DNA from: Candidatus Sediminicultor quartus
GTDB taxonomy: Bacteria > Atribacterota > Phoenicimicrobiia > Phoenicimicrobiales > Phoenicimicrobiaceae
Direction: 5' to 3'
Assembly (NCBI GenBank): GCA_011056645.1
Contig: DSEL01000186.1
Coordinates: forward strand, 1 to 57,533
Length of the DNA: 57,533 nucleotides
Shown: piece by piece, positions 27,843 to 44,884 of the stretch
Layout of the letters: every line of letters starts with the position of its first letter
Position numbering within the stretch: position 1 is the stretch's first letter
Notes under the pieces: generated by a model
Database searches by the model: none
What the model saw: only the letters and a program-made list of their open reading frames with translations
What the model was told of the DNA's origin: nothing
Translations under genes and position numbers: made by a program

Positions 27843-27855
27843 TAACTTTAATTGA

Positions 27856-27896
27856 AACCACAGGGCTGGCTTATTATTTAGCTTAGCCCTGTGGTT
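27856..27896 (+). terminator. Stem-loop after the SBP gene
   Basis: AACCACAGGGCT ... AGCCCTGTGGTT 12-bp inverted repeat. Confidence 0.6.
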
Positions 27897-27917
27897 CTCA
27901 TAGAAGGAGTGTAGTTA

Positions 27918-28829: not shown

Positions 28830-28844
28830 GGAGAATATTTTTTT

Positions 28845-29720: not shown

Positions 29721-29731
29721 CAGATATAGTT

Positions 29732-30331: not shown

Positions 30332-30473
30332 ATAAAGGTGCGATTCATCGAGCTTCTTAATTTTTAACCCTCCTTTTGGATGCTTCGAGAAAAGTATTTA
30401 TCTTTAAATAGAAAAATGATAGTGTTATAATTAAAATAGTTCTATTTAAAATAGGAAATAAAGAGGAGATAAG

Positions 30474-31850
30474 GTGCTTAGGATCAGAAATGCCCGGATT
30501 GTGAAAAATGAAGAGTTGAAAGAAGTAAATATATATGTTGAAAAGGGAAAAATAAAAGATATTGTACCGGGAGATAAGGCATTGCTTTTAGTTGAAAGAG
30601 AAATTGATGCCAAAGGCCATGTAGTATTTCCTGGCTTTATTGATTCCCACGTGCATTTTGATGATCCTGGATTTACAGAGAGAGAAGATTTTGAGACTGG
30701 GACTAAAAGTGCAGCAGCTGGCGGTATTACCACCATTATCGATATGCCCTGTACCTCTATTCCTCCGGTTACGAATGGTAAAAATTTTGATTACAAATTA
30801 AAGATAGTTAAACCAAAAGCCTATGTAGATTTTGCTTTCTGGGGAGGGATTACTCCGGAACAGATAGGATCGGGAGAATTCAAGAATAGTGTAAAAGAAT
30901 TAAAAGACAGGGGAGTTGTAGGAGTGAAGTTTTACACTATTTCCGGGATGGAACTCTATCCCAGGATGTCCATTCCCGATATGGATAAAGCCTTCAGAGT
31001 TCTCAAGGATTTAATGCTAGTTTGTGCGGTACATGCAGAGGATTATTATTTAGTAGAATATTATTCCCATCTTATGCAGGAAATGGGAAGAGAAGACCCC
31101 GAGAGTTGGTCTGAAGGAAGGACCTATGAAGCAGAGCCGGAAGCAATATGGTCGGTAGTGGGAATTACAAAAAAAGTTGGAAATAAACTTCATATTGTTC
31201 ATCTTTCTACCAAAGAAGGTTTAAATATTATTCGATGGGCGAAGTCTCAGGGAACGGATGTGACCGCTGAAACTTGCCCTCAGTATTTAGTTTTTACAGC
31301 AGAAGATTTTAACCAGATTGGTTCAATATTAAAAATCGCTCCACCATTACGCAAGGAAGAGGATAGGGAAGAACTGTGGAGAGGGTTAAAAGATGGTTCA
31401 ATTGATTTTATTTCCACCGACCATGCGGCAGGAAAATATCCGGAGGAAAAATCATCACCTAATATCTGGAAAAATTATGCTGGTATTCCTGGTGCTCAAT
31501 TGGCTGCTCCAACCTTAATTCATTTTGGTTATCATGGCGGTAGGTTAAAGTTAGGGGAGATTCAAAAATTAATGTCTGAGAATTCTGCTAAAAGGTACGG
31601 ACTTTTCCAGCAAAAAGGAGCTATTCAAGTTGGTTATGATGCTGATTTTACCATAATAGATCTGGATAAAGAATGGACTGTAGATCCATCGAAATTAATG
31701 AGCAAAGGAAAATACTCTCCCCTCTCCGGGAAAACTTTAAGAGGGAAAATATATATGACGATTATCCGTGGGGAATTAATATACAAGGAAGATGAAGGAA
31801 TAATTGGAGAAAAAGGAATCGGTGAATTGGTGGAAAGCAAGGAAAATTAA
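30474..31850 (+). CDS. Cyclic amidohydrolase (allantoinase/dihydropyrimidinase family)
   Basis: DSHVHF, AAAGGITT, carbamylated Lys (GVKF), VHAE, HIVH and TDHA motifs. GTG start after GAGGAG. Confidence 0.85.
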   Translation: MLRIRNARIVKNEELKEVNIYVEKGKIKDIVPGDKALLLVEREIDAKGHVVFPGFIDSHVHFDDPGFTEREDFETGTKSAAAGGITTIIDMPCTSIPPVTNGKNFDYKLKIVKPKAYVDFAFWGGITPEQIGSGEFKNSVKELKDRGVVGVKFYTISGMELYPRMSIPDMDKAFRVLKDLMLVCAVHAEDYYLVEYYSHLMQEMGREDPESWSEGRTYEAEPEAIWSVVGITKKVGNKLHIVHLSTKEGLNIIRWAKSQGTDVTAETCPQYLVFTAEDFNQIGSILKIAPPLRKEEDREELWRGLKDGSIDFISTDHAAGKYPEEKSSPNIWKNYAGIPGAQLAAPTLIHFGYHGGRLKLGEIQKLMSENSAKRYGLFQQKGAIQVGYDADFTIIDLDKEWTVDPSKLMSKGKYSPLSGKTLRGKIYMTIIRGELIYKEDEGIIGEKGIGELVESKEN

Positions 31851-31948
31851 TATTTAAAAATTAGTAGCAGATTCTGCTGCAATTCTGGTAATTTATCTTT
31901 ATCACGATCTCAAATAGAAATTATCCATAGAAAGGGAGGAAAAAATTA

Positions 31949-32932
31949 ATGCAAACTATATTTAAAGGCAAACATTTTATTACACTTCAAGATTGGAACA
32001 AAGGAGAAATAGACACCTTGCTCGATGTCTCTTTTGATTTGAAGAAAAAATTTGCCATGGGTATACCAACACCTTATTTATTATACAAGACCATATTTTT
32101 AATGTTTTTTGAGCAGTCAACACGAACCAGAAACTCAATGGAATCAGGGATTGCTCAGTTAGGAGGTCATGGCACTTTTCTTGATACCAGTACCATGCAA
32201 ATAGCTCATGGTGAAGTGGCAAAGGATACAGCTATTATTTTATCCAGATTTGGCCATGCTATTGCTTGCAGAAATTGCTTTTGGGAAGTAGGGAATAAAT
32301 ATCTAAAGGAAATGGAAAAATGGTCTACAGCTCCCATTTTAAACCTGCAAAGTGACTTATATCATCCCATGCAGGGAATTGCTGATTTGATGACCATGAA
32401 AGAAAAAATTGGAGATTTGAAAGGCACTAAAGTATCTGTTATTTGGGCTTATGCAAGCAGTCACAAGAAACCAATTTCAGTTCCGCTTACTCAAATTCTT
32501 TTATTTCCGAGATATGGAATGGAGGTTACTCTTGCCTATCCAAAAGGATATGATTTACCGGATTGGGCTATTAAACAAGCCAAAGAAAATGCTGAAAAAC
32601 ACGGGGGAACTTTAACCATAACCCACGATATAGAAAAGGCATATAGAGAAGCAGATGTAGTCATTCCCAAGAATTGGGGAAGTTGGGCAACTAATCAAAC
32701 AAGCGAAGTAATGGATGCCTTGCTTGAATCTTGCAAAAATTGGAAATGTACCGAGAAAATGATGAAACTTGCCAGCAAAGATGTTATGTATATGCACGCA
32801 CTCCCGGCAGATAGAGAAAATGAAGTTGAAAATTCAGTGATTGATGGGCCTCATTCAATTATTTACGACGAAGCAGAAAATAGATTACATACGGCAAAAG
32901 CAGTAATGATGCTAACCATGAATGGGAGGTAA
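31949..32932 (+). CDS. YgeW-like carbamoyltransferase
   Basis: STRT and HPMQ motifs; WAYASSHKKPISVP resembles YgeW WAYSPSYGKPLSVP; also PKNW and MHALPAD. Confidence 0.8.
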   Translation: MQTIFKGKHFITLQDWNKGEIDTLLDVSFDLKKKFAMGIPTPYLLYKTIFLMFFEQSTRTRNSMESGIAQLGGHGTFLDTSTMQIAHGEVAKDTAIILSRFGHAIACRNCFWEVGNKYLKEMEKWSTAPILNLQSDLYHPMQGIADLMTMKEKIGDLKGTKVSVIWAYASSHKKPISVPLTQILLFPRYGMEVTLAYPKGYDLPDWAIKQAKENAEKHGGTLTITHDIEKAYREADVVIPKNWGSWATNQTSEVMDALLESCKNWKCTEKMMKLASKDVMYMHALPADRENEVENSVIDGPHSIIYDEAENRLHTAKAVMMLTMNGR

Positions 32933-32980
32933 AAGAGGGAAAAAAGAAATAATTATATAGCCGGGGAGGAAAAAATAGAG

Positions 32981-34216
32981 ATGAGTTACCTAAAAAAACT
33001 AAAATGCCTATTGTGCGGAAGGGAATATGATATTGGAGAGGTAAGATACAATTGTCCGGAATGTGGGGATGAAGGGATTTTAGAAATAATTTATGACTAT
33101 CCTAAGCTAAAAAAGGTTTTTAATCGGGAATCCCTCAAAAAAAATAAGGAATTTTCCATGTGGAGATACCTGCCTCTTTTACCGGTGGATAATCCTGCCA
33201 AAATTGGACCGTCAAAAGTTGGTTGGACTCCTTTATATGAAGCGAAAAGAATAAGAGAAGATCTAAGAATACCCAATCTATGGATCAAGGATGACGGGAG
33301 GAACCCCACTGCTTCTTTAAAAGACCGGCCGTCTGCTATAGCAATAGTAAAAGCCCGGGAATTGGGGGAGAAGATCGTTACCTGTGCCTCTACCGGCAAT
33401 GCTGCCTCATCACTGGCGGGAGCTGCTGCATCGGTAGGTTTAAAGAGTTACATTTTTGTTCCCCAGACCGCACCAAGTGCCAAAATTGCCCAACTTTTAG
33501 TATTTGGCTCAACTGTCTTTGCAGTAAGAGGAACCTATGATGAAGCTTTTGATCTGTCCATTGAAGCTACCAGAGAATTTGGCTGGTACAATCGAAATAC
33601 TGCTTTTAATCCCAATATGGTGGAAGGGAAGAAGACGGTTGCATTGGAAATTATCGAACAAATGAATTTTGAAGTTCCAGATTATATATTTGTACCGGTA
33701 GGAGACGGTTGTATCATCTCTGGAGTAGCCAAAGCTTACCATGATATGTTTTCTTTAGGCTTTATTGACCATTGCCCCAAATTGGTGGCTGTACAGGCAG
33801 AAGGATGTAAGCCGATTGTAGAGGCGGTAAATGGTGATGGAGAAGTAAAATTTGTGGAGCCGAATACCATTGCCGATAGCATTGCTGTAGGAATTCCCAG
33901 GAATCGACTGATGGCAGTAAGAGATATAAAAGAATCAAGAGGATTTGGTGTTGCAGTTAGTGATCAAGAAATATTGGAAGCGATTAAATATTTAGGTTCT
34001 AAGCAAGGAATTTTTGCCGAACCTGCGGGCTCTACTGCTTTTGCCGGAATGGTCAAAGCGCTAAAGGAGGGAAAAATCTCCAAAGGAGATAAAATTGTAG
34101 TATTAGTTACTGGAAATGGATTAAAGGACGTAGAAAGTGCTAAAAAAGCCGGGGGAGAGGCCCTGGTAATAGACCCCAATTTAGAAGCGGTAAAGGAGAT
34201 AATGAACAGAAAGTGA
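32981..34216 (+). CDS. Threonine synthase-like PLP enzyme (fold type II) with N-terminal Zn ribbon
   Basis: CLLC..CPEC, PTASLKDR, ASTGNA, VPVGDG and EPAGS motifs. Confidence 0.85.
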   Translation: MSYLKKLKCLLCGREYDIGEVRYNCPECGDEGILEIIYDYPKLKKVFNRESLKKNKEFSMWRYLPLLPVDNPAKIGPSKVGWTPLYEAKRIREDLRIPNLWIKDDGRNPTASLKDRPSAIAIVKARELGEKIVTCASTGNAASSLAGAAASVGLKSYIFVPQTAPSAKIAQLLVFGSTVFAVRGTYDEAFDLSIEATREFGWYNRNTAFNPNMVEGKKTVALEIIEQMNFEVPDYIFVPVGDGCIISGVAKAYHDMFSLGFIDHCPKLVAVQAEGCKPIVEAVNGDGEVKFVEPNTIADSIAVGIPRNRLMAVRDIKESRGFGVAVSDQEILEAIKYLGSKQGIFAEPAGSTAFAGMVKALKEGKISKGDKIVVLVTGNGLKDVESAKKAGGEALVIDPNLEAVKEIMNRK

Positions 34217-35337
34217 ATATTACGGAACAAAAAGAAATACAAGATCTTCTTCAAAAGCTTATTCGGATTAAAAGTATAAACCCTCCGGGAAACGAAAATC
34301 AAATTGCTAATTTTATAAAGAAATTTCTCTTAAAAAATAATATCCAATCCGAATTAGTTCCTTTAGAAGAAAGCCGGAGTTCGATTGTAGCAACAATTGA
34401 AGGAGAAGAGGAAAGAAATATTACACTTTGCGGGCATTTAGATACGGTAGCGGCAAAAGAAGAGGAGTGGACGAGACCTGCTTTCCAGGGATTAATCGAA
34501 AACGGGAAGATGTACGGCTTAGGTACATCAGATATGAAGGGTGGAGTGGCTGCCATTCTTTACGCAGCAGTACTTTTAAAAAGAAAGGGAATTGTTCCTA
34601 AAAAATCAATTCAATTAGCTCTTACGGCAGATGAAGAATGGGAATATAGAGGGGTAAAAAGTTTAATTGATGAGGGTTATTTTGACCGGACTGATTTTCT
34701 TATTATTGCTGAACCCTCTAACCTTCAAGTTTCTACCGGAGAAAAGGGAGAATTATGGATAAAAGCTAAATTTTTCGGGAAGTCCGCCCATGGATCCACT
34801 CCTGAGGTGGGGGTAAATACAATTATACCGGGAAGTGAGTTTGTAGTGAAAGTCACCGAAAGATGTGGGAAAATATTTGAAGCAAATCACTTTTGGGGCA
34901 AAAGTTCAATAAATATCGGACAGTTTCACGGAGGATCACAGGTAAATATTGTCCCTGATTATTCAGAAATACAACTAGATTTCAGGGTAATTTCAGATGA
35001 GGATAAAGAGAAAGCAGTGGAATTAGTGGTAATGGCGGGTGAAGAGATTGAAAAAAAGTATAAAGTGCGATTTGCGCAAGAGATTTTTAGTTATCATCCT
35101 CCTATTTTTACCAGTTCAGATAATCCTTATGTGGAAAAGTTTCGGCAGGTTTCCGGAGCAAAGGGGGTAATAATTACTAAATACTGCACTGATGGAGCGA
35201 CAATAATTCCAAGGAAGAGAATTCCTTTTATTATTTTTGGACCCGGGTATATTACCCAGGCTCATCAAAACGATGAATATATTGAATTGAAATCTCTTTA
35301 TCAAGCAGTAGATACCTATATAAAATTCTTAACATAA
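34213..35337 (+). CDS. M20 (ArgE/DapE/YgeY-like) metallohydrolase
   Basis: GHLDTV, DMKGG, DEE, AEPS and AHQNDE motifs. GTG start overlaps the upstream stop. Confidence 0.88.
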   Translation: MNITEQKEIQDLLQKLIRIKSINPPGNENQIANFIKKFLLKNNIQSELVPLEESRSSIVATIEGEEERNITLCGHLDTVAAKEEEWTRPAFQGLIENGKMYGLGTSDMKGGVAAILYAAVLLKRKGIVPKKSIQLALTADEEWEYRGVKSLIDEGYFDRTDFLIIAEPSNLQVSTGEKGELWIKAKFFGKSAHGSTPEVGVNTIIPGSEFVVKVTERCGKIFEANHFWGKSSINIGQFHGGSQVNIVPDYSEIQLDFRVISDEDKEKAVELVVMAGEEIEKKYKVRFAQEIFSYHPPIFTSSDNPYVEKFRQVSGAKGVIITKYCTDGATIIPRKRIPFIIFGPGYITQAHQNDEYIELKSLYQAVDTYIKFLT

Positions 35338-35462
35338 CCAAGAATATCTCTCGTTAAGCAACTGTCAGCTTGAAAGTTACGAATTGTAAGGTTATAGGAT
35401 AGAATTCAGAAGCCAGTAACCAGAATCAAGAACAATATTTGATAACTTAAAGTATTTGGAGA

Positions 35463-35515
35463 GTAGGGATTTGATTCATTAAACCCGTTTCGGGTCGGAT
35501 AAATCCGACCCCTAC
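35463..35515. repeat. REP doublet, GTAGGG family
   Basis: Two head-to-head units: GTAGGGATTTGATTCATTAAACCCG (+) and GTAGGGGTCGGATTTATCCGACCCG (-). Internal hairpin GGGTCGGAT/ATCCGACCC at 35492-35511. Confidence 0.75.
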
Positions 35516-35544
35516 AGTCTACAAATAAATAAAGGAGATATAGA

Positions 35545-37011
35545 ATGATTGATCTAACTATTAACGAAAAACAATTAGAAAGAACTGTAAAGAGAGCCAG
35601 AGAAAAAAATATTGTCATCCCCACTTTTGAACAGATGAGAAATCCGGAGCTTATTCCCCAAAAAATCAAAGATCATCTAAAAGATGTAGGATTATGGGAT
35701 ATTAATTCTTATAATCTTTTTCGGATTACCTGGAAGAATGAACCGATAAAAAAGGGTGGCCAATTCGATGGGGTTAATTTTGTAGAGTTACCTCCCGAAT
35801 TAACCGGAGTAAAAGCTAAAATATACGCTTTAGTAGGTAAATGGTTTCCCACCGGAGCCCATAAGGTAGGAGCTACTTTTGGTTGTCTGGTCCCCAGATT
35901 AGTGACCGGTCAGTTTGATCCTACTTCCCAGAAAGCAGTCTGGCCTTCTACCGGCAATTACTGCCGGGGCGGTGCCTATGATTCTGACCTGCTTTCCTGC
36001 GAATCCATTGCTATTCTCCCGGAAGGGATGAGCAAAGAACGCTTCGACTGGTTATCCAAAGTAGCCGGAGAAGTCATTGCTACTCCGGGAACCGAGAGTA
36101 ATGTAAAAGAAATTTTTGATAAGACCTGGGAATTAAAAAAGACCAGGGATAATGTGGTCATCTTCAATCAGTTTGAGGAATTCGGTAATCACCTCTGGCA
36201 TTATGATGTTACCGGTCATGCCATGGAAGAGGTCTTATCTCAAGTAATGAATTCAAAAGATCATTATGCCGGAGTGGTTCTGACTACCGGTTCTGCTGGT
36301 ACCCTGGGTTGCGGAGATTACCTGAAAGAAAGATTCCCTACCAGCAAGCTCGCGGCCGGTGAAGCTTTGCAATGCCCCACACTTCTGGCTAATGGTTTTG
36401 GTGCTCATCGCATTGAAGGGATAGGGGATAAACATGTCCCCTGGATACACAATGCCAAAAATACCGATCTGGTCATTGCCGTAGATGATAACAACAGTAT
36501 GGGGATCATCCGTCTATTTAATGAACCGGTTGGGCAGAGATATTTAAGCAAAAAAGGTGTCCCTGCAGAAATCATCAAAAAATTGCCTCTTATGGGAATC
36601 TCCAGTGTGGCTAATATGATCATGGCTATTAAGTTTGCTAAATATTATGAATTAACCGAAAAAGACATCGTCATAACTGTCTTTACCGATTCCATGGAAC
36701 TTTACGGCTCCCGGTTAAAAGAGTTAGAGGAAGAGTTTGGTCCCTATAATGAAATAGATGCAGCTATCGATTTTCATCGTAACCTGCAGGCACTTACTAT
36801 TGATTATATGCAAGAATTAACCTACTATGATAAGAAAAGGATCCATAACCTCAAATACTTTACCTGGATAGAACAACAGGGAAAGGGTTTAGAGGAATTA
36901 GATGCCCAATGGTATGACTATGAAAATTACTGGGGTGGTATTCATAACCAGGTCGATGAGATAGATAGATTGATTAGAGAATTTAATCAGAGGACTGGTC
37001 TGTTAAAGTAA
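35545..37011 (+). CDS. PLP-dependent enzyme, fold type II (cysteine synthase-like, long form)
   Basis: TGAHKVG (PLP Lys), STGNY, TGSAGT and HRIEGIG motifs. Function unknown. Confidence 0.8.
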   Translation: MIDLTINEKQLERTVKRAREKNIVIPTFEQMRNPELIPQKIKDHLKDVGLWDINSYNLFRITWKNEPIKKGGQFDGVNFVELPPELTGVKAKIYALVGKWFPTGAHKVGATFGCLVPRLVTGQFDPTSQKAVWPSTGNYCRGGAYDSDLLSCESIAILPEGMSKERFDWLSKVAGEVIATPGTESNVKEIFDKTWELKKTRDNVVIFNQFEEFGNHLWHYDVTGHAMEEVLSQVMNSKDHYAGVVLTTGSAGTLGCGDYLKERFPTSKLAAGEALQCPTLLANGFGAHRIEGIGDKHVPWIHNAKNTDLVIAVDDNNSMGIIRLFNEPVGQRYLSKKGVPAEIIKKLPLMGISSVANMIMAIKFAKYYELTEKDIVITVFTDSMELYGSRLKELEEEFGPYNEIDAAIDFHRNLQALTIDYMQELTYYDKKRIHNLKYFTWIEQQGKGLEELDAQWYDYENYWGGIHNQVDEIDRLIREFNQRTGLLK

Positions 37012-37051
37012 ATAAAAGAATAAAATTAGAACATAAAATAGGAGGTTTTCA

Positions 37052-38005
37052 ATGCGTAGTTTTTTAGGAAGAGATATCCTCTCTTTGAAAGATTTTGAGA
37101 GGGAAGATTTTGTTAGAATTTTTGAAGTTTGTAAAAAATTAGAACCTATTGCCAAGAATCGTAAAAACAGTAATATTCTGGCCGATAAAACTATGGTAAC
37201 CGCATTCTATCAACCAAGCACCCGTACCCGCTTGTCTCATGAAGCAGCCATGCATCGTCTTGGCGGCCATGTACTTGGTTTTGCGGATGCAAAAATGACC
37301 CGAGCGGGCGATTTCTATCAGGAAAGCATTAAAGATACTGTTAAAATGCTGGAATATTATGGTGACGTTATTGTAATGCGGCATTTTCAACAGGGCGCCC
37401 CGGCTGAGACAGCAAAATGGGCTAGCGTTCCTGTAATTAACGCCGGTGATGGTTGGGGAGAGCACCCTACCCAGGTTTTAACCGATCTATATACCATTCT
37501 ACAGGAAAAAGGTACTATTGATGGGTTGACTTTCCTCTGTATTGGCGATATGCGTATGCGCACGATGCATTCCATTTCCTATGCACTTACCCAATTTGAT
37601 GCCCAGGTTATTTACGTAGCCCCACCTGCAATGTCAATGACCGAAGAATTTAAAGCCGAGTTAAAAAATTACAACTTGCGTTTCAAGACAGCAGAGCATG
37701 TTGCTGATGTAATTAATGAAGCGGATGTTATCTACATGGAACCTGTTGTGCAGGCTGATTATACCAAATCTCGTGAAGATACAAAGTCAGACAAAGGCTT
37801 AACCCCTGATAATTACCGGGTAACTCGCGAACTTTTAGAGAAGAAAGCAAAACCCAATTCAATTATATTGCATTCTCTGCCGAGAATGGATGAACTGCCT
37901 CCAGACGTCGATATCACCCGACATGCACGTTATTGGCAGGAAGCCTTTAATGGAGTTGTTTTGAAAATGGCTTTGCTCGCATTAATTCTGGGTGCCGAAG
38001 AATAA
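37052..38005 (+). CDS. Aspartate carbamoyltransferase-like protein (altered acceptor site)
   Basis: STRTRLS, MRH, NAGDG, HPTQ and HSLPR are present; the aspartate-binding residues diverge (see findings). Confidence 0.8.
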   Translation: MRSFLGRDILSLKDFEREDFVRIFEVCKKLEPIAKNRKNSNILADKTMVTAFYQPSTRTRLSHEAAMHRLGGHVLGFADAKMTRAGDFYQESIKDTVKMLEYYGDVIVMRHFQQGAPAETAKWASVPVINAGDGWGEHPTQVLTDLYTILQEKGTIDGLTFLCIGDMRMRTMHSISYALTQFDAQVIYVAPPAMSMTEEFKAELKNYNLRFKTAEHVADVINEADVIYMEPVVQADYTKSREDTKSDKGLTPDNYRVTRELLEKKAKPNSIILHSLPRMDELPPDVDITRHARYWQEAFNGVVLKMALLALILGAEE

Positions 38006-38180
38006 ACTTCTTATAAGAAACAAGATAATTCTATGTGGTTAATAAAATAAATCCAAACAAAAAGTATAAAATTTTAGCATAGAGTAGCATGGAGAAGTTA
38101 GATTAGCATTCTACATTATTTATCTATCTTATTATCTATTGGTATTTTTGGGATAGAACTACTGAAAAGCGAGGCGAGGC

Positions 38181-40481
38181 ATGGATTATAGTACAGTTAA
38201 TAAACCAATAAAACGGATTGATGCCTATGAAAAAGTTACTGGAAAAGCCAAATTTGGTGCTGATCTTTTCTTTACCAATATGCTTTATGCCAAAGTTTTA
38301 CGAAGTAAATATCCCCATGCTCTAATTTTGAAAATTAACATCAAAAAAGCTCTGGCTTATCCGGGCGTAAAAGCAGTGATTACGGCGGATGATATTCCTA
38401 ATAATGAATTTGGAGTTATTGTTCAAAATCAACAAGTGTTAGCTCGACAACAAACTTTTTATAGCGGGGATGGCATTGCTGTCATTGCTGCCGAGACTAA
38501 AGAGTCAGCTGCAAAAGCTCTGGAGTTAATTGAAGTAGAGTATGAGGAATTACCGGGTATTTTTGACCCGGAAGAAACCGAGAAAAAAGATGCTCCTCTA
38601 ATCCATCCGGAGCTAGAAAATAATCAGGTGGTTCATCATCAGTTAAGAAAGGGAGATATTGAAGGGGGATTTACTCAGGCAGAGGTAATACTGGAAAGAG
38701 AATATACCACACAATTTGTAGAACACGCTTATATTGAGCCTGAGTCGCTCATCGCAGTCCCCCATGAACAAAATGCTTTAGTAACAATCTATGGTTCAAT
38801 TCAGAACCCTTTTTCCTGCCGAAATGCTGTGGCCAGCGTACTCAAGGTACCCTTGAATAAAGTGAGAATAATTCAGAATCATATGGGTGGATCATTTGGA
38901 GGCAAAGACGAAGTGATGTCTTCCATGGCTGCCCGGGCTGCCCTCCTGGCTCTAATAACCAACCAACCAGTCAAGATGGTTAATACCAGAGATGAGTCAA
39001 TTCTCGAAAGCTACAAACGCCATCCTTATAGGATGAAATACAAAGTAGGTGCCACCAAAGAAGGCAAGCTGATAGTAATGGAGATTAAGTGTTTGGCTGA
39101 TAGTGGAGCTTACGCCTGCCAGACTCCTTTTGTTACCTGGCGTTCAGTTGTCCAGGCTACCGGTCCCTACGAGCTGCCTAATGTGAAGACAGATACTTAC
39201 GGTTATTACACCAACAATATATATACCGGAGCAATGAGAGGTTATGGTTCCCCGCAGATTGTCTTTGCCCAGGAATCATTAATGGATGAGCTGGCCGAAG
39301 CACTACAGATGAACCCCATGGAGCTGCGTTTGAAAAATATCTATCATAATAATTCTATTACTGCCAGTGGACAGAAATTAGATAATCACCAGGTGAGTCT
39401 GGAAGAGGTTATTCATAAAGCGGTTAAAGTCAGTAATTATAAGGAGAAATATAGAGAATACAGCAAATCACAGCCAGGAGATAAAAAAAGAGGAATCGGT
39501 ATGGCTGTCAGTTTTAGAGGCTGTAGCCTGGGTGCTGAAGCAACCGATGCTGCAGGAGCCATAGTCGCCGTACAGCGTGACGGAAGTATCTTAATCTCCT
39601 GCGGATTAGCAGAAAATGGTGAAGGCTTAAAGACTGTTTTTACTCAGATAGCTGCCGAAGAATTAGGTGTGTACACTCAAAGGATTAACTATATGGAGGT
39701 TGATACTTCAGTATCTCCTGAAAGTGGGGCTACGGTTGCCTCCCGCAGTACTATATTAGGTGGCAATGCCGTAAAAAATGCTGCCTATCAATTAAAAGAA
39801 ACTCTTATTGAAATAGTCGCCGCTAAATTTAAAATTAGAACAGATCATTTGGATTTTAAGAATGAAAATATATATGATAAAAGTAAAAATCAAAAGATCA
39901 TTTCTTTTGATGAGGTTGTAAATTTAGCTGATCAGCAGGGAATATTTTTATCTGCTTATGGTTGGTACAAAGCTCCTGATATTTCCTGGAATGAAGAAAT
40001 TGGTCAGGGCAGACCCTATTTCACCTATGTTTATGGTTGTCAGATAGCAGAAGTGGAAGTTGATATCGCAACCGGTCAGGTAGAAGTATTAAAGATGACC
40101 GCTGCTCATGACGTGGGTAAAGCCATTAATCCTGCCTGCCTTAAAGGGCAGATCTACGGTGGCGTAATGATGGGCTTGGGTTATGGCATTATGGAGGAAT
40201 TAGAAAGCGAAGAAGGCTATATCAAAAATACTAACTTTGATGAATATCTAATTCCTACGGTAAAAGATATGCCGGAAATTATCCCGGTTATTATAGAAAA
40301 TCCCGATCCTCATGGTCCTTATGGAGCGAAATCTATCGGTGAACCAACTTTAGAACTGGGTGCCCCTGCCATTGCCAATGCAGTAGCTCAAGCAACCGGA
40401 AAAAGAATTAGGCATTTACCCCTTAATTTAGAACGGGTATTACTGGGATACTCTTTAAGAAAAGGTAAAACAAAGAAATGA
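38181..40481 (+). CDS. Xanthine dehydrogenase-family molybdopterin-binding subunit
   Basis: GGSFGGK, AMRGYG, SRST and KSIGE (catalytic Glu) motifs. Confidence 0.92.
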   Translation: MDYSTVNKPIKRIDAYEKVTGKAKFGADLFFTNMLYAKVLRSKYPHALILKINIKKALAYPGVKAVITADDIPNNEFGVIVQNQQVLARQQTFYSGDGIAVIAAETKESAAKALELIEVEYEELPGIFDPEETEKKDAPLIHPELENNQVVHHQLRKGDIEGGFTQAEVILEREYTTQFVEHAYIEPESLIAVPHEQNALVTIYGSIQNPFSCRNAVASVLKVPLNKVRIIQNHMGGSFGGKDEVMSSMAARAALLALITNQPVKMVNTRDESILESYKRHPYRMKYKVGATKEGKLIVMEIKCLADSGAYACQTPFVTWRSVVQATGPYELPNVKTDTYGYYTNNIYTGAMRGYGSPQIVFAQESLMDELAEALQMNPMELRLKNIYHNNSITASGQKLDNHQVSLEEVIHKAVKVSNYKEKYREYSKSQPGDKKRGIGMAVSFRGCSLGAEATDAAGAIVAVQRDGSILISCGLAENGEGLKTVFTQIAAEELGVYTQRINYMEVDTSVSPESGATVASRSTILGGNAVKNAAYQLKETLIEIVAAKFKIRTDHLDFKNENIYDKSKNQKIISFDEVVNLADQQGIFLSAYGWYKAPDISWNEEIGQGRPYFTYVYGCQIAEVEVDIATGQVEVLKMTAAHDVGKAINPACLKGQIYGGVMMGLGYGIMEELESEEGYIKNTNFDEYLIPTVKDMPEIIPVIIENPDPHGPYGAKSIGEPTLELGAPAIANAVAQATGKRIRHLPLNLERVLLGYSLRKGKTKK

Positions 40482-41362
40482 TATCTTATGAATTTTTGAC
40501 CACCCGAAAAATAGAAGAAGCCTTGAATTACTTAGACAAATTAACTAAGGTTCATATTTTAGCTGGCGGAACGGACTTTTTAGTTGACCTTTATAAAAAA
40601 AGCTCTCGCTTACCGGACTTTGATTACCTGTTAGATATAAGCAATATCTCGGAATTAAAAATTATTAATTTAAATAACAATTTTATAGAAATAGGGCCGC
40701 TGGTAACCCATTCCCGTTTGATCAATGAGCCGCTTATTAAAAATAATTTTCCGATAATAAAGGAAGCAGCTTGTACCATTGGTTCAACCCAGATACGTAA
40801 TCGTGGTACTATCGGAGGAAATATTTTAAATGCTTCACCGGCAGCAGATCTTCTACCTCCTCTCATCGCCTTAAGAGCTGAAGTAGAATTAACTTTCAGG
40901 AAAGGCAAAAGGGTACTACCTTTAGAAGCATTTTTAGCTGGTCCTTACAAGACCAAATTACAGTCCAATGAGCTACTGACTAAGATAAAAATACCTCTGC
41001 TTGGTGATAATTATTATAGTGATTTTAAAAAAATTGGCCGGAGAAAAGCCTTATCTATTGCCAGATTAAGTCTTGCCCTGATTACCAAAATAAATAAAGA
41101 AGGTATTTTCCAAGATACCAGAGTTGTACCAGGTTCAGCTACACCTTATCCCCAATCCCTTCCAGAGACCGAAAAAGCGGTTAATAGTAAATCGATATTT
41201 AATATTGATTTAGAAGAGATTGGTAAGATAATCAGTAAGGAAATGATTTCTATCACTGGAGAAAGATGGTCTACTCCTTACAAAGAACCGACTATTGCTG
41301 TTCTAGTTAAGAGAGCGCTGAAAAAAATTATTGGGGAGGCAAAGATCAATAAAAATGAATAA
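40478..41362 (+). CDS. Xanthine dehydrogenase-family FAD-binding subunit
   Basis: AGGTD, QIRNRGTIGGN, SPAAD and GRRKA motifs. Confidence 0.92.
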   Translation: MISYEFLTTRKIEEALNYLDKLTKVHILAGGTDFLVDLYKKSSRLPDFDYLLDISNISELKIINLNNNFIEIGPLVTHSRLINEPLIKNNFPIIKEAACTIGSTQIRNRGTIGGNILNASPAADLLPPLIALRAEVELTFRKGKRVLPLEAFLAGPYKTKLQSNELLTKIKIPLLGDNYYSDFKKIGRRKALSIARLSLALITKINKEGIFQDTRVVPGSATPYPQSLPETEKAVNSKSIFNIDLEEIGKIISKEMISITGERWSTPYKEPTIAVLVKRALKKIIGEAKINKNE

Positions 41363-41843
41363 GATTATAGTTACTTTCATGGTTAATGGCAAGGAAGTAA
41401 CCTTAAAAGTAAGCCCTAAAGAGCGTTTACTTGATACTTTAAGAGAACAATTAAAATTAACTGGAACCAAAGAAGGTTGTAGTGTTGGTGAATGCGGAGC
41501 CTGCACGGTTATCCTTGATGAAAAAGCAGTTTCTTCCTGTCTGGTTCTTACCGGGCAGATCGGAGGGAGTGAGGTTTTAACTATTGAAGGGCTAGAAACT
41601 AATGGAAAGCTTGATCCTTTACAACAAGCTTTTATTGATTATCATGCCATACAATGCGGCTTCTGTACCCCGGGGATGTTGATGTCCGCCAAAGCATTAC
41701 TTATGCACAATCCTCATCCCAGCCGAGAAGAGATTAAAACTGCTATAGAAGGTAATCTTTGTCGTTGTACCGGTTATGAACAAATTATCCAAGCGATTGA
41801 ATATTGTCAAGGGGACGGTTCTACTGACAATATTTCTATTTAA
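41355..41843 (+). CDS. Xanthine dehydrogenase-family [2Fe-2S] subunit
   Basis: GCSVGECGAC..C, QCGFCTPG and NLCRCTGY motifs. ATG at 41355. The C-terminal tail derives from a repeat. Confidence 0.93.
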   Translation: MNKIIVTFMVNGKEVTLKVSPKERLLDTLREQLKLTGTKEGCSVGECGACTVILDEKAVSSCLVLTGQIGGSEVLTIEGLETNGKLDPLQQAFIDYHAIQCGFCTPGMLMSAKALLMHNPHPSREEIKTAIEGNLCRCTGYEQIIQAIEYCQGDGSTDNISI

Positions 41844-41874
41844 TATTGTCAGTAGAACCGTCCCCTTGACAATA
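41802..41874. repeat. Perfect 33-bp-arm palindrome (REP doublet, GGGGACGGTTCT family)
   Basis: TATTGTCAAGGGGACGGTTCTACTGACAATATT, a 7-nt loop, then its exact reverse complement. Confidence 0.9.
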
Positions 41875-41894
41875 GCAAGAAGGAGATTTTATAA

Positions 41895-43253
41895 ATGTCT
41901 TCTATATTAATTAAGAATATAAAAGAGATTGTAACTATGGATAGAGAAAGAACCAGATTAAAGAGTTACAGTCTTTTGATTAAAAATAATATAATCAGCA
42001 AAATTGCTCGTGATATAAAACTTGAAGCTGATAAGGTAATTGATGGTTCTGATTATTTTCTTTATCCTGGGTTGATAAATACCCATCACCACTTTTATCA
42101 AACTTTAACCAGAAATATTTCCCAGGTGCAAAATGTAGAGCTATTTAATTGGCTCAAATATCTTTATCCTATCTGGGCTCGCTTAACTCCCGAAGCAGTT
42201 TATTACAGTAGTCTGGTAGCTATGGGAGAACTTCTAAAAACCGGTTGTACTACTGCGGTGGATCAATTCTATGTTTTTCCCAAGGACCAGCCCAAAGAAC
42301 TGGTAGATGAAGAATTTAGAGCGGCTCAAGAAATTGGGATTCGATTTCATGGAAGCAGAGGCTCTATGTCTTTGAGCGAAAAAGATGGCGGATTGCCTCC
42401 GGATTCAGTAGTACAGACAGAAGAAGAGATTTTGAACGATTCTCAGCGGGTTATCGAAAAATTTCATGATTACCGGCCTTTTGCCATGCAAAGGGTGGTA
42501 TTATCCCCTTGTTCCCCGTTTTCGGTTACTGAAAATCTTTTGAAGGAATCGATTAAATTAGCTCGGAGTTATAAAGTAGAGAGCCATACCCATATAGCCG
42601 AAACCAAAGACGAAGATGATTTTTGTCAGGAAACTTTTGGTCTTCAACCATTAGATTATATGGAAAAAGTCGGCTGGTTGGGGAATGATGTTTGGTTTGC
42701 TCATTGTGTCCACCTGAATGAAAAAGAAATAAATTTATTGGCTGAAACAGGGACAGGAGTGGCGCATTGTCCGGTATCCAATCAGAAATTGGCTTCCGGA
42801 GCGGCGAATATTCCTTATATGTTAAAAAAGAATGTACCGGTGGGATTAGCAGTTGATGGCAGCGCCAGCAATGATTCTTCTAATATGATTGCTGAACTTA
42901 AAGCAGCTTTATTGATGCATCGATTAATTTATGGTATCTCCAGTATGTCTGCCGAAGAAGTGCTAAGTATGGCGACCAATGGTGGCCGTGATGTCCTTAA
43001 TCAGCCGGAGATTGGCAGTCTTGAAGAAGGAAAAGCGGCAGATATGTTTTTGATCAATGTAAAAAGATTAGGATTTGCCGGGGGTTTGCACGATTCTGTT
43101 TCTGCTCTGGTTACTTCCGGTGATTCCCAAATTGTGGATATTACGATAGTAAATGGCAGGATTGTAGTTCGTGATGGAAGATTGCTCTCTGTTAATGAAG
43201 ACAAAGTGGTGGAAAGGGCCAACAAGATTTCCCAAAAAATGATTGAAGGATAG
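41895..43253 (+). CDS. 8-oxoguanine deaminase/AtzB-like amidohydrolase
   Basis: NTHHHFYQ, PCSPFS, HTHIAE, AHCVH, HCPVSN and AVDGSASND motifs. Confidence 0.88.
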   Translation: MSSILIKNIKEIVTMDRERTRLKSYSLLIKNNIISKIARDIKLEADKVIDGSDYFLYPGLINTHHHFYQTLTRNISQVQNVELFNWLKYLYPIWARLTPEAVYYSSLVAMGELLKTGCTTAVDQFYVFPKDQPKELVDEEFRAAQEIGIRFHGSRGSMSLSEKDGGLPPDSVVQTEEEILNDSQRVIEKFHDYRPFAMQRVVLSPCSPFSVTENLLKESIKLARSYKVESHTHIAETKDEDDFCQETFGLQPLDYMEKVGWLGNDVWFAHCVHLNEKEINLLAETGTGVAHCPVSNQKLASGAANIPYMLKKNVPVGLAVDGSASNDSSNMIAELKAALLMHRLIYGISSMSAEEVLSMATNGGRDVLNQPEIGSLEEGKAADMFLINVKRLGFAGGLHDSVSALVTSGDSQIVDITIVNGRIVVRDGRLLSVNEDKVVERANKISQKMIEG

Positions 43254-43267
43254 AGGAGGGGAGAAAG

Positions 43268-44599
43268 ATGTTGATCGTCGGAAATGGAACAGTTCTTACT
43301 TTTGATAAAAATTCCCGGGTTATCTCTAAGGGCGGAGTAGTAATCGAGGAAGAGAGAATTTTGGCAGTCGGGGATACGGCAAAATTACTGATCAAATATC
43401 CTAAAGCCGCATTTAAAGATGTTCAAGGCAAGATAATAATGCCGGGTATGATTAATACTCATATGCACCTTTATAGCACTTTTGCTCGAGGTATGAACCT
43501 TAAAACTGAGCAACCACCTAAAAATTTTGTGGAAATATTAGAAAAACTATGGTGGAGATTAGATAAAATTTTAAACGAAGAAGATATATATTGCAGTGCT
43601 ATTTATGCTCTTTTAGATAGTGTTAAAAAAGGAACTACCACTATTTTTGATCATCATGCCAGCAGCAATCTTATCGATGGTAGTTTAGACATTATTACTG
43701 AAGCAGTCCGACAAACCGGTATTCGGGCAAATCTATCGTACGAGATTTCCGATCGGGATGGTCATGAAAAAGCTTTAGATGGGATCAGAGAAAACGAAAG
43801 ATTTATTAAAAAAGCACAGCAGGAAGGCAATAATTGCCTGGGAGGATTAATCGGACTTCATGCTTCCTTTACATTGAATAATGAGACTTTAACTGAAGTG
43901 GCTGCTCTGGCAGACAGGCTGAGAGTCCCTTTTCATATTCACGTTGCTGAGGGTAAAGCCGATTACTATGAAAGTAAAACCAGGGGTTATCAAGGGGTAG
44001 CCGAACGCTTAAATCGCTTTCATATCCTGCGACCCGGTACTTTGGCTATCCATGGAGTTTATCTTAAAGAAGAGGAATTAGAAGTTATCAAGGAGCACAA
44101 CAGTTACTTAATCCATAATCCAGAATCTAATATGGGTAATGCAGTGGGTACTGCTCCAATTAAAGCTGCCATGGATAAGGGTGTAATAGTAGGATTGGGG
44201 ACAGATGGTTATACCAGCGATATGTTTGAAAGTATTAAAGTAGCTAATCTATTACAAAAACACGATTCAGGTAATCCCCAGGCTGGCTGGGCAGAAGTCT
44301 TTAAGATAGTTTTTAAGAATAACTGTGAAATTGCATCCGGATTTTTTGGAGAAACTTTGGGCGTCCTTCAAGCTGGAGTCCCAGCGGATGTTATTGTGGT
44401 AGATTATTATCCGCCTACTCCTATTAACAGTGAAAATGCTTATTTCCATATTTTATTTGGTATAAGTGGAGATATGGTCGATACCACTATTGTCGGAGGT
44501 AAAATATTAATGGAAGATCGAGAGATATGTGGTATAGATTACCAAAGAATTACTAAAAGAGTAAGAGAACAAGCAGAGAAGTTTTGGAAACGATTTTAA
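43268..44599 (+). CDS. ssnA: SsnA-like aminohydrolase
   Basis: NTHMHLYSTFARG, DHHAS, GLHASFT, HIHVAE, HNPESNMGN and GTDG motifs. Confidence 0.85.
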   Translation: MLIVGNGTVLTFDKNSRVISKGGVVIEEERILAVGDTAKLLIKYPKAAFKDVQGKIIMPGMINTHMHLYSTFARGMNLKTEQPPKNFVEILEKLWWRLDKILNEEDIYCSAIYALLDSVKKGTTTIFDHHASSNLIDGSLDIITEAVRQTGIRANLSYEISDRDGHEKALDGIRENERFIKKAQQEGNNCLGGLIGLHASFTLNNETLTEVAALADRLRVPFHIHVAEGKADYYESKTRGYQGVAERLNRFHILRPGTLAIHGVYLKEEELEVIKEHNSYLIHNPESNMGNAVGTAPIKAAMDKGVIVGLGTDGYTSDMFESIKVANLLQKHDSGNPQAGWAEVFKIVFKNNCEIASGFFGETLGVLQAGVPADVIVVDYYPPTPINSENAYFHILFGISGDMVDTTIVGGKILMEDREICGIDYQRITKRVREQAEKFWKRF

Positions 44600-44756: not shown

Positions 44757-44884
44757 GTGTATAATTGATAATTGTTTGAATGATGTACTAAATTAAGGTA
44801 ACAAACAACAAAACAATCTTTTTCATAATTATACCTCCTTTACAAGCTCGCTTTGCTCATGGCAAGGCGAGCTTTTATTTTTTT
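44757..44884 (+). ncRNA. Candidate ~125-nt small RNA or leader with an anti-Shine-Dalgarno sequence
   Basis: Bounded by a consensus promoter and an intrinsic terminator, with no plus-strand ORF. Contains a C/A-rich tract and ACCTCCTTT (44833-44841). No known family recognised. Confidence 0.45.
44844..44884 (+). terminator. Rho-independent terminator
   Basis: AAGCTCGCTTTGC-TCATG-GCAAGGCGAGCTT 13-bp stem (one G.U) followed by a long T tract. Confidence 0.85.

Follow-up and report, generated by a model that had tools for sequence, protein, structure and literature searches.

The window, by which we mean the whole 57,533-nucleotide stretch of Candidatus Sediminicultor quartus DNA that was analysed (contig DSEL01000186.1), carries eleven co-directional open reading frames on the + strand at 30474-44599. 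Their coordinates, together with domain and NCBIfam profile searches, confirm the eleven genes and families described in the original prediction, as well as the BMP-type ABC transporter that it placed nearby. The features are as follows (profile scores in bits, set against model cut-offs where these apply):

30403..30431, +, promoter-like site (TTTAAA-17-TATAAT, extended TG), 43 nt 5' of g01, from a consensus scan
30474-31850, +, g01, allantoinase-like cyclic amidohydrolase (TIGR03178, 401 > 358)
31949-32932, +, g02, short YgeW-type carbamoyltransferase, OTC/YgeW-like (under every NCBIfam cut-off)
32981-34216, +, g03, ThrC-like PALP-family protein (PALP, 261 bits)
34213-35337, +, g04, M20 hydrolase of the ArgE/DapE type (Peptidase_M20, M20_dimer)
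35545-37011, +, g05, 488-aa PALP-family protein with a weak CysK/CBS match (PALP, 40 bits)
37052-38005, +, g06, ATCase-like protein, pseudo-ATCase (TIGR00670, 265 > 237)
38181-40481, +, g07, molybdopterin-binding (Mo) subunit of XDH (Ald_Xan_dh_C, MoCoBD_1, MoCoBD_2)
40478-41362, +, g08, FAD subunit of XDH (FAD_binding_5, CO_deh_flav_C)
41331-41843, +, g09, 2Fe-2S subunit of XDH (Fer2, Fer2_2)
41801-41873, no strand assigned, perfect 33-bp inverted repeat spanning the g09 stop and the g09/g10 gap
41895-43253, +, g10, 8-oxoguanine-deaminase-type amidohydrolase (NF006055, 606 > 532)
43268-44599, +, g11, SsnA (NF005540, 597 > 444; TIGR03314, 559 > 456)
44844..44884, +, terminator-like hairpin, a 14-bp stem then a T run, 245 nt 3' of SsnA
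46453-51485, +, Bmp/PnrA-type ABC transporter (ATPase, two permeases, PF02608 binding protein)

The consensus scan finds promoter-like sites in the region at the number expected by chance, and the one 5' of g01 is suggestive through its placement alone; the terminator-like hairpin outranks every other such site in the region. The g09/g10 hairpin has a fold energy of -58 kcal/mol and one related copy, on contig C72, and may act in RNA processing or stability or else be a small repeat element. The transporter likely imports a purine or nucleoside, and related loci also carry its four families (clusters 8, 9, 10 and 14).

The 3' part of the operon and several genes on other contigs point to purines. 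SsnA is a marker enzyme of the pathway; in E. coli its substrate is reduced 2,8-dioxopurine, whose six-membered ring it opens (10.1101/2025.05.19.654654). Compared with the E. coli yge/ssnA set, g11 is 35% identical to SsnA over its full length, g02 is 35% identical to YgeW, and contig C69 encodes a YgfK orthologue (50% identity over 1028 residues). The XDH-g10-SsnA order is kept in relatives at 72-86% identity. The g07 subunit reaches about 580 bits with the XdhA and PucD models, under their cut-offs, and is 28-31% identical to both XdhA and XdhD of E. coli, values that fit xanthine as well as urate/2,8-dioxopurine as its substrate; g10, 30% identical to E. coli GuaD, is proposed to be a feeder deaminase for aminopurines. 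Contig C6 encodes YqeC, MocA and YqeB, and SelD, SelA, SelB and tRNA-Sec lie within the window; the functions ascribed to these proteins and to SsnA and YgfK follow published work. No uricase was found in the genome. YgfK, SsnA, YqeB/YqeC and SelD together form the full reductive set of this presumed anaerobe. With SsnA and the 8-oxoguanine deaminase above their cut-offs and YgfK present, the anaerobic purine breakdown of the ygeW/ssnA/xdh type that had been read from the cluster is well supported.

The candidate ring-opening enzyme g01 (Amidohydro_1 in Pfam) stays below the D-hydantoinase cut-off (TIGR02033, 269 < 393), scores 269-344 bits with the dihydropyrimidinase and hydantoin-propionate amidohydrolase models and is 30% identical to E. 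coli HyuA. It presumably takes the place of HyuA in opening the ring of 5-(ureidomethyl)hydantoin. The start of g04 overlaps the stop of g03 by 4 nt; its product exceeds the TIGR01910 cut-off (259 > 218), falls short of the YgeY model (182 < 321) and is 24% identical to E. coli YgeY, and we propose that it is a YgeY analogue that removes a ureido group by hydrolysis.

Two carbamoyltransferases are encoded. The product of g02, composed of OTCace_N and OTCace domains, is the genome's top homologue of YgeW and shares with it WAYxxSxxKPxSVP, PK(N/S)W and HALPAD; it has HPMQ, the OTCase motif DxxxSMG was absent from it in the motif comparison, and its motifs agree with the YTCase row in Table 1 of PMC4016543. 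Its proposed role is to release carbamoyl phosphate from one ureido group by phosphorolysis. In g06, STRTR, R105, HPTQ and R167 are retained, and four substitutions (R229 to P, Q231 to T, K84 to Y, HPLP to HSLP) are invariant in seven family members. In ATCase, R229 and Q231 hold the beta-carboxylate of aspartate (PMC4581275); the sequence of g06 fits an ATCase-derived protein that would be unable to bind aspartate and would belong in the pseudo-ATCase class of PMC4016543. This family is 69-78% identical across phyla, and we propose that it phosphorolyses the 2-ureido group. A genuine ATCase (PyrB) with an intact RxQ motif is encoded on C6, and a genuine OTCase (ArgF) with intact DxxxSMG and HCLP on C139. 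On the relative order of YgeW and YgeY in the known pathway, the two 2025 studies differ (10.1101/2025.05.19.654654; 10.1101/2025.04.24.650524).

The cluster had been described as devoid of recognisable DpaL and carbamate kinase. Both absences hold for the window, and that of DpaL extends to the whole genome, but a carbamate kinase is present at C6:18813-19781 (371 bits > 358). With the DpaL/YgeX model, whose cut-off is 276 bits, the best score in the genome is 59, obtained with g03, and the model finds nothing on g05. Across the phylum DpaL occurs in 0 of 86 genomes and SsnA in 22; in other phyla, genomes bearing g05 have DpaL in just 3 of 50 and SsnA in 37-46 of 50. None of these 22 SsnA genomes has DpaL, so another enzyme must finish the pathway there.

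Two fold-type II PLP enzymes are candidates. The first, g03, has an N-terminal Cys4 ribbon and a retained PLP lysine and just exceeds a ThrC model (NF006050, 308 against 303), but in its family of 53 members STGNT has become STGNA, NPxR has no Arg and GNAGN has become GDG(C/N)I. Among the genomes of the phylum with intact g03, 16 of 18 have SsnA, and g03 is reduced to fragments where SsnA was lost. These features suggest a remodelled ThrC-like enzyme, which we propose as a pathway-specific partner of g05. A class-II ThrC is encoded on C30, among genes unrelated to purines, with thrB/hom on C5, and a separate CysK-like gene lies on C35. The second enzyme, g05, scores 88 against a cut-off of 351 with the cysK model; its sequence matches in the PDB are CBS, CysK and Fn1055, and the top Foldseek hits of its AF2 model (pLDDT 88) are CysK, CBS and beta-cyanoalanine synthase. 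Its PLP-lysine motif is PTGAHKVG, and helical extensions of about 80 N-terminal and about 100 C-terminal residues are without a structural match. Although found at 67-80% identity across phyla in at least 599 genomic loci, it is publicly named just 'cysteine synthase' or 'PLP-dependent enzyme'. It belongs to an unnamed family and is a candidate for the step or steps carried out elsewhere by YgeX. It must play another role as well, or instead, because 19 of the 37 g05-bearing genomes of the phylum are without SsnA; in these g05 is solitary, beside sugar and NDK genes, and in family f2 it lies downstream of a sugar operon.

In the synteny survey the gene set recurs across many phyla, in dozens of genomes, which places it beyond chance. 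Many anaerobic phyla have a block of (pseudo-ATCase)–YgeW-like–carbamate kinase–ThrC-like–488-aa PLP enzyme beside XDH, SsnA or YgfK, and numerous loci show linkage of the module with SsnA, YgfK or UacX. In the 80 loci most similar to g05, where counts are bounded by contig ends, g03 adjoins g05 in 56 although gene order is otherwise reshuffled, g02 is found in 39 (often with carbamate kinase after it), carbamate kinase in 29, a cyclic amidohydrolase in 27, XDH in about 22, an M20 gene in 17, g06 in 12, SsnA in 11 and YgfK in 5. One Synergistaceae locus has the order M20-M20-g03-SHMT-g05-FTHFS-FolD, and in one SsnA-free Synergistaceae genome an M20-M20-g03-g05 module has transporters as its sole company.

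We therefore consider it somewhat better than an even bet (roughly 55%) that the genes at 30474-44599 represent a widespread, previously undescribed version of the oxygen-free urate/purine breakdown pathway published in 2025, and that the products of the operon carry out the ring opening and later steps of a variant reductive (2,8-dioxopurine) route. By homology, the XDH-family hydroxylase and aminopurine deaminase would supply the input, YgfK would reduce 2,8-dioxopurine and SsnA would open the six-membered ring. The g01 enzyme would then convert 5-(ureidomethyl)hydantoin into 2,3-diureidopropionate, the homologue of allantoate that is one carbon longer. In one possible division of labour, phosphorolysis by g06 would take off the 2-ureido group, as the Rubrobacter ureidoglycine carbamoyltransferase does on allantoate, and g02 would likewise take off the 3-ureido group. 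Each reaction would yield carbamoyl phosphate, from which the carbamate kinase on C6 would make ATP; with two carbamoyl phosphates, up to two ATP rather than one could be gained per urate. For one of these ureido groups, hydrolysis by the M20 enzyme g04 may be an alternative. The C3 product, 2,3-diaminopropionate or 3-ureidoalanine, would pass to g03 and g05 instead of DpaL/YgeX. Most speculatively, one of these would replace the beta-substituent with water, yielding serine, and the other, or SHMT in some lineages, would convert serine into pyruvate or into glycine and a C1 unit. Such a serine route is possible, as hinted by the Synergistaceae SHMT/FTHFS/FolD locus and the beta-replacement fold of g05. 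Over the extra branches for additional purines or pyrimidines that were originally considered, the evidence favours a single pathway whose downstream half has been replaced.

The role assigned to the PLP pair is contested by a reading in which g05 is a general serine/cysteine-type enzyme, g03 serves amino-acid biosynthesis or salvage and the two are merely co-localised, the pathway stopping at diaminopropionate or ureidoalanine or using an unrecognised enzyme elsewhere. The solitary g05 in the 19 SsnA-free genomes, its high identity across phyla, which resembles that of a central-metabolism enzyme, and its cysteine synthase/CBS fold speak for this; its unlikelihood comes from the persistent adjacency of g03 and g05, the way g03 tracks SsnA, the uniform lack of DpaL in the SsnA genomes of the phylum, and the genome's own CysK-like gene. 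That g06, g02 and g03 have lost their specificity motifs, that genuine copies reside on other contigs and that the block is conserved across phyla refute, in turn, the scarcely credible view of ordinary pyrB, argF, thrC and cysK lying by chance beside xdh and ssnA. The NCBIfam labels 'aspartate carbamoyltransferase' for g06 and 'threonine synthase' for g03, which might seem to favour it, arise because the scores barely exceed the cut-offs. The housekeeping orthologs in an unconserved cluster that would have contradicted the original prediction were thus not what we found.

Other substrates also have to be weighed. In an allantoin (C2) route, g01 would be an allantoinase, g06 a ureidoglycine carbamoyltransferase acting on allantoate and g02 an oxamate-type carbamoyltransferase, the PLP and M20 enzymes would act on ureidoglycine, glycine or serine, and the SsnA genes would adjoin just because both serve purine nitrogen. 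That g01 clears the allantoinase cut-off agrees with this, as does the characterised pseudo-ATCase of the class that g06 fits, which uses allantoate and adjoins allantoinase and carbamate kinase; in one lineage the SHMT, FolD and FTHFS genes beside the PLP enzymes would likewise suit a glyoxylate/glycine product. We nevertheless regard this route, though a live alternative, as unlikely in a presumed anaerobe that has the full reductive set and no uricase in its genome: profile searches of the cluster turn up neither an M20 of the allantoate amidohydrolase type nor a ureidoglycine aminohydrolase or ureidoglycolate enzyme, the module is repeatedly linked to SsnA, YgfK or UacX, and the PxT of g06 at 229-231 lies outside the three published pseudo-ATCase subgroups. 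Very unlikely is a different heterocycle, with g01, g06, g04 and the PLP enzymes forming a Pyd-like or hydantoin-utilisation module for pyrimidines or hydantoins. Cyclic amidohydrolases, carbamoylase-type enzymes and carbamoyltransferases do also build such reductive routes, the scores of g01 with the dihydropyrimidinase and hydantoin-propionate amidohydrolase models would agree, and so would the SsnA-free Synergistaceae module; but profile searches found no PydA-type reductase in the window, beta-alanine-type products give fold-type II PLP enzymes no role, and the module is as a rule linked to XDH and SsnA.

The closest known system is the XdhD(DOPDH)-YgfK-SsnA-HyuA-YgeW-YgeY-YgeX pathway, with YqeA, of E. 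coli and Clostridium sporogenes (Li et al. 2025, Life Metab and bioRxiv 10.1101/2025.05.19.654654; Liu et al. 2025, bioRxiv 10.1101/2025.04.24.650524). Common to both are SsnA, an XDH-family hydroxylase, YgfK, carbamate kinase, the selenium cofactor genes (YqeB, YqeC, SelD), an M20 hydrolase and a carbamoyltransferase of the YgeW type, as is the overall course, in which a purine is broken down to a C3 amino acid and carbamoyl phosphate yields ATP. In contrast, YgeX/DpaL is missing here from genome and phylum, an allantoinase-like enzyme replaces HyuA, YgeW is short through missing insertions, there are three additional enzymes (an ATCase-derived carbamoyltransferase, a ThrC-like enzyme and the 488-aa CysK-fold enzyme), and the genes are spread across at least three contigs. 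The pseudo-ATCase UGTCase of Rubrobacter xylanophilus (Rxyl_2847) phosphorolyses allantoate, and pseudo-ATCases adjoin allantoinase, carbamate kinase, or ygeW+xdh+hyuA (Barba et al. 2013, PMC4016543). Like them, g06 has STRT, HPTQ and HSLP without the RxQ aspartate motif; like UGTCase it sits among purine-catabolic genes that include an allantoinase-like one, to which relatives add carbamate kinase and a ygeW homologue, and its proposed chemistry is likewise the phosphorolysis of an alpha-ureido acid. It differs in its PxT, which fits none of the three subgroups published so far, in a host without uricase, and in its likely substrate, 2,3-diureidopropionate, with one carbon more than allantoate. 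The PLP pair resembles YgeX/DpaL in fold type, in its position by ygeW- and ygeY-type genes and in its presumed task of making a central metabolite from a C3 diamino acid, but no orthology is detectable, and two enzymes stand here for one, g03 from the ThrC branch and g05 from the CysK/CBS beta-replacement branch. The core fold of g05 is that of CysK, CBS and Fn1055 (Foldseek TM about 0.8 on target), the last being a serine-producing cysteine (hydroxyl) lyase of Fusobacterium of the same enzyme type. Like these enzymes, g05 has the PLP lysine, the asparagine and glycine loops and a serine at the pyridine nitrogen; it differs from them in its identity of 20-27%, its TrpB-like lysine motif GAHK and its asparagine loop STGNYCRGG.

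The eleven-gene operon of the window probably encodes a variant of the known anaerobic urate pathway; in the literature searched, neither the PLP pair nor the variant as such is described, though either may have been published elsewhere. The genome is a 2.25-Mb draft of 231 contigs (96.6% complete), of which the window is one entire contig (C3, 57.5 kb). The nearest relatives of its genes carry the name Atribacterota, the probable phylum of the host. All genes of the operon lie on the forward strand, with intergenic gaps of -32 to 207 nt.

Features of the operon and its flanks, with the basis of assignment
30474-44599, + strand, the operon, in the order:
g01, +, allantoinase-like cyclic amidohydrolase (Pfam/NCBIfam)
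g02, +, OTC/YgeW-like carbamoyltransferase (under every NCBIfam cut-off)
g03, +, ThrC-like PLP enzyme (Pfam/NCBIfam)
g04, +, M20 hydrolase, ArgE/DapE-type (Pfam/NCBIfam)
g05, +, 488-aa PLP enzyme (weak match to cysteine-synthase models)
g06, +, ATCase-like carbamoyltransferase (Pfam/NCBIfam)
g07-g09, +, three XDH subunits (Pfam/NCBIfam)
g10, +, 8-oxoguanine-deaminase-type enzyme (NCBIfam, over cut-off)
g11, +, SsnA (NCBIfam, over cut-off)
46453-51485, Bmp-type ABC transporter, downstream of the operon
~52844-53840, -, selD, with an in-frame TGA as Sec in the motif SAAGUAAK
53918-55801, -, selB
55814-57223, -, selA
57311-57409, -, tRNA-Sec

The gene inventory of the original prediction, from the amidohydrolase to SsnA and the Bmp transporter, was right in every item. 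A promoter-like site lies 43 nt 5' of the operon, and of the terminator-like hairpins in the region the strongest is 245 nt 3' of it; the scan returned as many sites as expected by chance, and only these flanking positions are noteworthy. A perfect 33-bp inverted repeat (41801-41873; hairpin of -58 kcal/mol), with one related copy on contig C72, spans the stop of the XDH Fe-S gene just 5' of the deaminase gene. Directly upstream of the operon, a sugar-utilisation block (21153-30331) encodes an isomerase-like protein, a GntR/LacI-type regulator, a class-II aldolase/epimerase, an FGGY kinase, an ABC sugar transporter and a HAD phosphatase.

It took until 2025 for the anaerobic urate pathway to be solved, with E. 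coli and gut clostridia as the organisms studied. [quoted passage not shown] A genome-wide comparison with the E. coli yge/ssnA set found matches for SsnA, YgfK, YgeW, HyuA, YgeY and YqeA and none for YgeX. SsnA (g11) scores 597 bits with NF005540, over the cut-off of 444, and is 35% identical to its E. coli counterpart. The best matches to YgeW, HyuA and YgeY are g02 (35% identity), g01 (30%) and g04 (just 24%), respectively, and the best match to YqeA is a carbamate kinase on contig C6 (41%). The YgfK orthologue also lies outside the window (C69:1440-4604), shares 50% identity with its E. coli counterpart across 1028 residues and is next to another XDH set. In that locus (L009, 1440-8332 of C69) the molybdenum subunit is divided between two ORFs (6057-7337 and 7316-8332), a split that is either natural or a frameshift. 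YgeX/DpaL had no match in the whole genome, whether sought with the DpaL model or by tblastn with E. coli YgeX, and all 86 genomes examined in the host phylum lack DpaL. The predicted lack of DpaL and carbamate kinase thus holds for the window, and for DpaL throughout the genome, but carbamate kinase is present on C6; C. sporogenes likewise has its carbamate kinase outside the cluster. YqeC, MocA and YqeB are also found on C6, where the first ~35 kb (~1-35000; L005-L007) carry an XDH set, yqeC, mocA, yqeB (two ORFs), then an IclR regulator, carbamate kinase and a genuine ATCase, continuing with a Liv/Urt-type ABC transporter, an AOR-like oxidoreductase, a second allantoinase/hydantoinase-like enzyme, PEPCK and GABA transaminase. 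This stretch may be a second island degrading ureido compounds.

The genome holds four XDH sets that are equally distant from XdhA and XdhD (28-34% identity to either), and the XdhD marker Glu606 sits in an XdhD-only insertion missing from all four; neither identity nor marker favours xanthine or 2,8-dioxopurine as the substrate of the window XDH. The complete selenocysteine set in the window (52844-57409, minus strand) fits the known selenium dependence of these hydroxylases. The product of g01 is negative in the HyuA-type D-hydantoinase test (TIGR02033, 269 against a cut-off of 393) and scores 401 with the allantoinase model; judged by its sequence, it is a cyclic amidohydrolase different from HyuA.

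The second carbamoyltransferase, g06, has an intact carbamoyl-phosphate site (STRTR, R105 and HPTQ), and R167 is also kept. R229 is replaced by P, Q231 by T, K84 by Y and HPLP by HSLP, in g06 as well as in six relatives belonging to other phyla; in ATCase, R229 and Q231 hold the aspartate beta-carboxylate and K84 is contributed by the neighbouring chain (PMC4581275). The PyrB RxQxER test is accordingly negative for g06, and the ATCase paralogue on C6 retains both R229 and Q231. Compared with Table 1 of PMC4016543, g06 passes the pseudo-ATCase/UGTCase motif test (STRT and HPTQ kept, H[ST]LP, RxQ lost), with a subgroup motif, PxT, that is not among the pseudo-ATCase subgroups of that table. With the aspartate-anchoring residues lost and the carbamoyl-phosphate site kept, g06 is, by these motifs, a member of the pseudo-ATCase class of Barba et al. 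2013. Such enzymes neighbour allantoinase and carbamate kinase, or ygeW, xdhABC and hyuA, and the one from Rubrobacter converts allantoate into ureidoglycine and carbamoyl phosphate by phosphorolysis (PMC4016543). The OTCase test is negative for g02, which lacks the ornithine loop DxxxSMG and has PKNWGSW and HALP where the paralogue on contig C139 has DVWTSMG and HCLP. It carries the YTCase motifs STRT, HPMQ and HALP (S[LT]RT, HP[TMF]Q and H[AVC]LP; PMC4016543) and shares a WAY..KPxSVP block with YgeW; with the family HMMs, however, it reaches 192 and 178 bits, far short of their cut-offs (453 and 500), and it is without the insertions of YgeW.

Turning to the PLP pair, g03 retains the PLP lysine and bears an N-terminal Cys4 ribbon. 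The motifs STGNT, NPxR(I/L)EGQKT and VGNAGN are invariant in the solved class-I threonine synthases compared; in g03 and 52 relatives, STGNT becomes STGNA, NPxR is without its Arg and GNAGN becomes GDG(C/N)I. We take all three to be the substrate-phosphate binders of threonine synthase, as in the Thermus structure. The threonine synthase motif test is negative for g03, though HMM NF006050 is barely exceeded (308 vs 303). Housekeeping threonine genes lie elsewhere, namely thrB, hom and ask on contig C5, and on C30 a ThrC of the E. coli type. The predicted model of g05 (pLDDT 88, pTM 0.91) superposes in its core on CysK, CBS, beta-cyanoalanine synthase and the serine-forming Fn1055 enzyme, and its helical extensions, of about 80 residues at the N-terminus and 100 at the C-terminus, are without structural match. 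While the fold agrees with cysteine synthase and CBS, the cysK HMM scores only 88 against a cut-off of 351, the lysine motif is TrpB-like (GAHK) and the asparagine loop is altered (STGNYCRGG). Annotated publicly only as "cysteine synthase" or "PLP-dependent enzyme", the g05 family has at least 8000 database matches and, in species-representative genomes, at least 599 loci, with an unusually high conservation of 67-80% identity between phyla.

These observations bear on whether the genes might simply be pyrB, argF and thrC in their housekeeping roles, single-copy and in an unconserved cluster. This identity is rejected, because the specificity motifs are lost and true copies are present on other contigs (ATCase on C6, OTCase on C139, ThrC on C30). 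A synteny survey moreover found that the block recurs across phyla, so the cluster is conserved. Among the best 80 g05 loci, g03 directly adjoins g05 in 56, in either order. A g02-type carbamoyltransferase, sometimes in two copies, is found in 39. The other neighbours are carbamate kinase (29/80), a cyclic amidohydrolase (27/80), XDH subunits (~22/80), M20 (17/80), g06 at 69-78% identity (12/80), g10 and SsnA (11/80 each) and YgfK (5/80). Bmp transporters are also frequent around these loci. RidA, urease and serine dehydratase are not among the recurrent neighbour families of g05 loci, and an SDH_alpha-like gene occurs near g05 in Halanaerobium-type loci only. Three layouts recur: g06-g02-carbamate kinase-g03-g05 in Chloroflexota, g05-carbamate kinase-g02-g02 in Bipolaricaulota and Thermotogae-labelled MAGs, and g05-g03-M20-g02 in Halanaerobiales and Synergistaceae. 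By these layouts, the second ureido group would be cleaved either by another carbamoyltransferase or by an M20 hydrolase; all three candidates (both carbamoyltransferases and the M20 enzyme) are present in the window.

Two Synergistaceae MAG loci show the pair in another setting. One (L028, 490-9705) reads M20-M20-ThrC-like-SHMT-488-aa PLP-formate-THF ligase-FolD; the other (L026, 4831-14286) reads Na:alanine symporter-M20-M20-ThrC-like-PLP-Amidohydro_3 (UacY-like)-TRAP binding protein, in a genome without an SsnA match at E<=1e-60. The PLP pair can sit in a transporter-fed module tied to C1 metabolism. In an Acetomicrobium MAG (L047, 13750-14838), a PydA/UacX-type reductase (DHO_dh + 4Fe-4S) lies between a YgeW-like gene and XDH, and this lineage has the variant downstream module with a clostridial-type reductase instead of YgfK.

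Genome profiles were drawn from 136 sampled genomes. Among 50 g05-bearing genomes from many phyla, SsnA is over cut-off in 37 (46 at E<1e-60) and DpaL in 3. Within the 86 genomes of the host phylum, SsnA occurs in 22, g05 in 37, both in 18, SsnA only in 4, g05 only in 19 and DpaL in none. Three of the four SsnA-only genomes carry g03 on short contigs, which suggests that g05 there is probably unassembled. Intact g03 is present in 18 genomes of the phylum, 16 of which have SsnA. Strict phylogenetic coupling of g05 to SsnA fails in the host's own phylum; the 19 g05-only genomes lower confidence in g05 alone as the YgeX replacement and move weight to g03. In the SsnA-lacking family f2, a lone g05 directly follows the sugar operon (isomerase, GntR/LacI regulator, class-II aldolase, FGGY kinase) whose counterpart in the window lies upstream of the purine cluster. 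Two relatives without SsnA, G134 (C43) and G126 (C217, L099), have g03 fragments beside an intact g05, and a third, G085 (C78, L100), has a chimeric ORF joining g03-like residues 1-144 to g05 residues 146-488. G126 and G085 also have a true YgeY, 63-67% identical to that of E. coli. We read the SsnA-less relatives as having retained g05 while the purine cluster decayed; on this reading, g03 is pathway-specific and g05 has a wider or additional role.

How the variant pathway might end can be proposed from the chemistry. Each intermediate of the reductive pathway differs by one carbon from its homologue in the allantoin pathway, which pairs 5-(ureidomethyl)hydantoin with allantoin, 2,3-diureidopropionate with allantoate and 3-ureidoalanine with ureidoglycine; owing to this homology, the allantoinase-like g01 and UGTCase-like g06 would be natural catalysts of the C3 series. 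Between them, g06 and the YgeW-type g02 could release both ureido groups as carbamoyl phosphate, and the last steps would fall to g03 and g05. An allantoin route proper, on which these enzymes would act on allantoin intermediates themselves, is possible; against it, uricase was not found in the genome and the reductive set is complete there. On the reductive route, exit through serine is doubtful; the SHMT- and FolD-containing Synergistaceae locus hints at it, and it draws support from g05, whose fold is CysK/Fn1055-like, and from the ThrC lineage, whose chemistry adds water. For the full reading, in which the PLP pair and two carbamoyltransferases form a DpaL-independent, environmentally dominant ending of purine fermentation with 2 ATP per urate, an exit by serine in place of direct diaminopropionate deamination and g05 as a new, strongly conserved beta-replacement/beta-elimination class, we estimate a probability of about 0.25. 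The variant set is seen in Chloroflexota, Atribacterota, Synergistota, Halanaerobiales, Thermotogota-type and Bipolaricaulota MAGs; among its cultured carriers are Halanaerobium kushneri ATCC 700103 and Acetomicrobium.

The original interpretation is supported in part: its assignment to the ygeW/ssnA/xdh type of purine pathway stands, and the evidence favours replaced downstream enzymes (YgeX absent, a PLP pair, a second carbamoyltransferase) over "extra branches" for other purines or pyrimidines. A published survey of SsnA neighbourhoods tallied every gene with PF00291 as "YgeX" and every one with PF00185 as "YgeW"; at this Pfam level YgeX and YgeW are not separable from enzymes of the g03, g05, g02 and g06 types, and the variant would be hidden. 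If our reading is true, most SsnA-bearing environmental anaerobes end the pathway with other enzymes, perhaps gaining more ATP, and the automatic annotations "aspartate carbamoyltransferase", "threonine synthase" and "cysteine synthase" are wrong for three widespread proteins. It also offers the orphan PLP family of g05, which is very large and very strongly conserved, a concrete function that can be tested, and would stretch the pseudo-ATCase concept of Barba et al. beyond allantoate to the C3 homologue of that compound.
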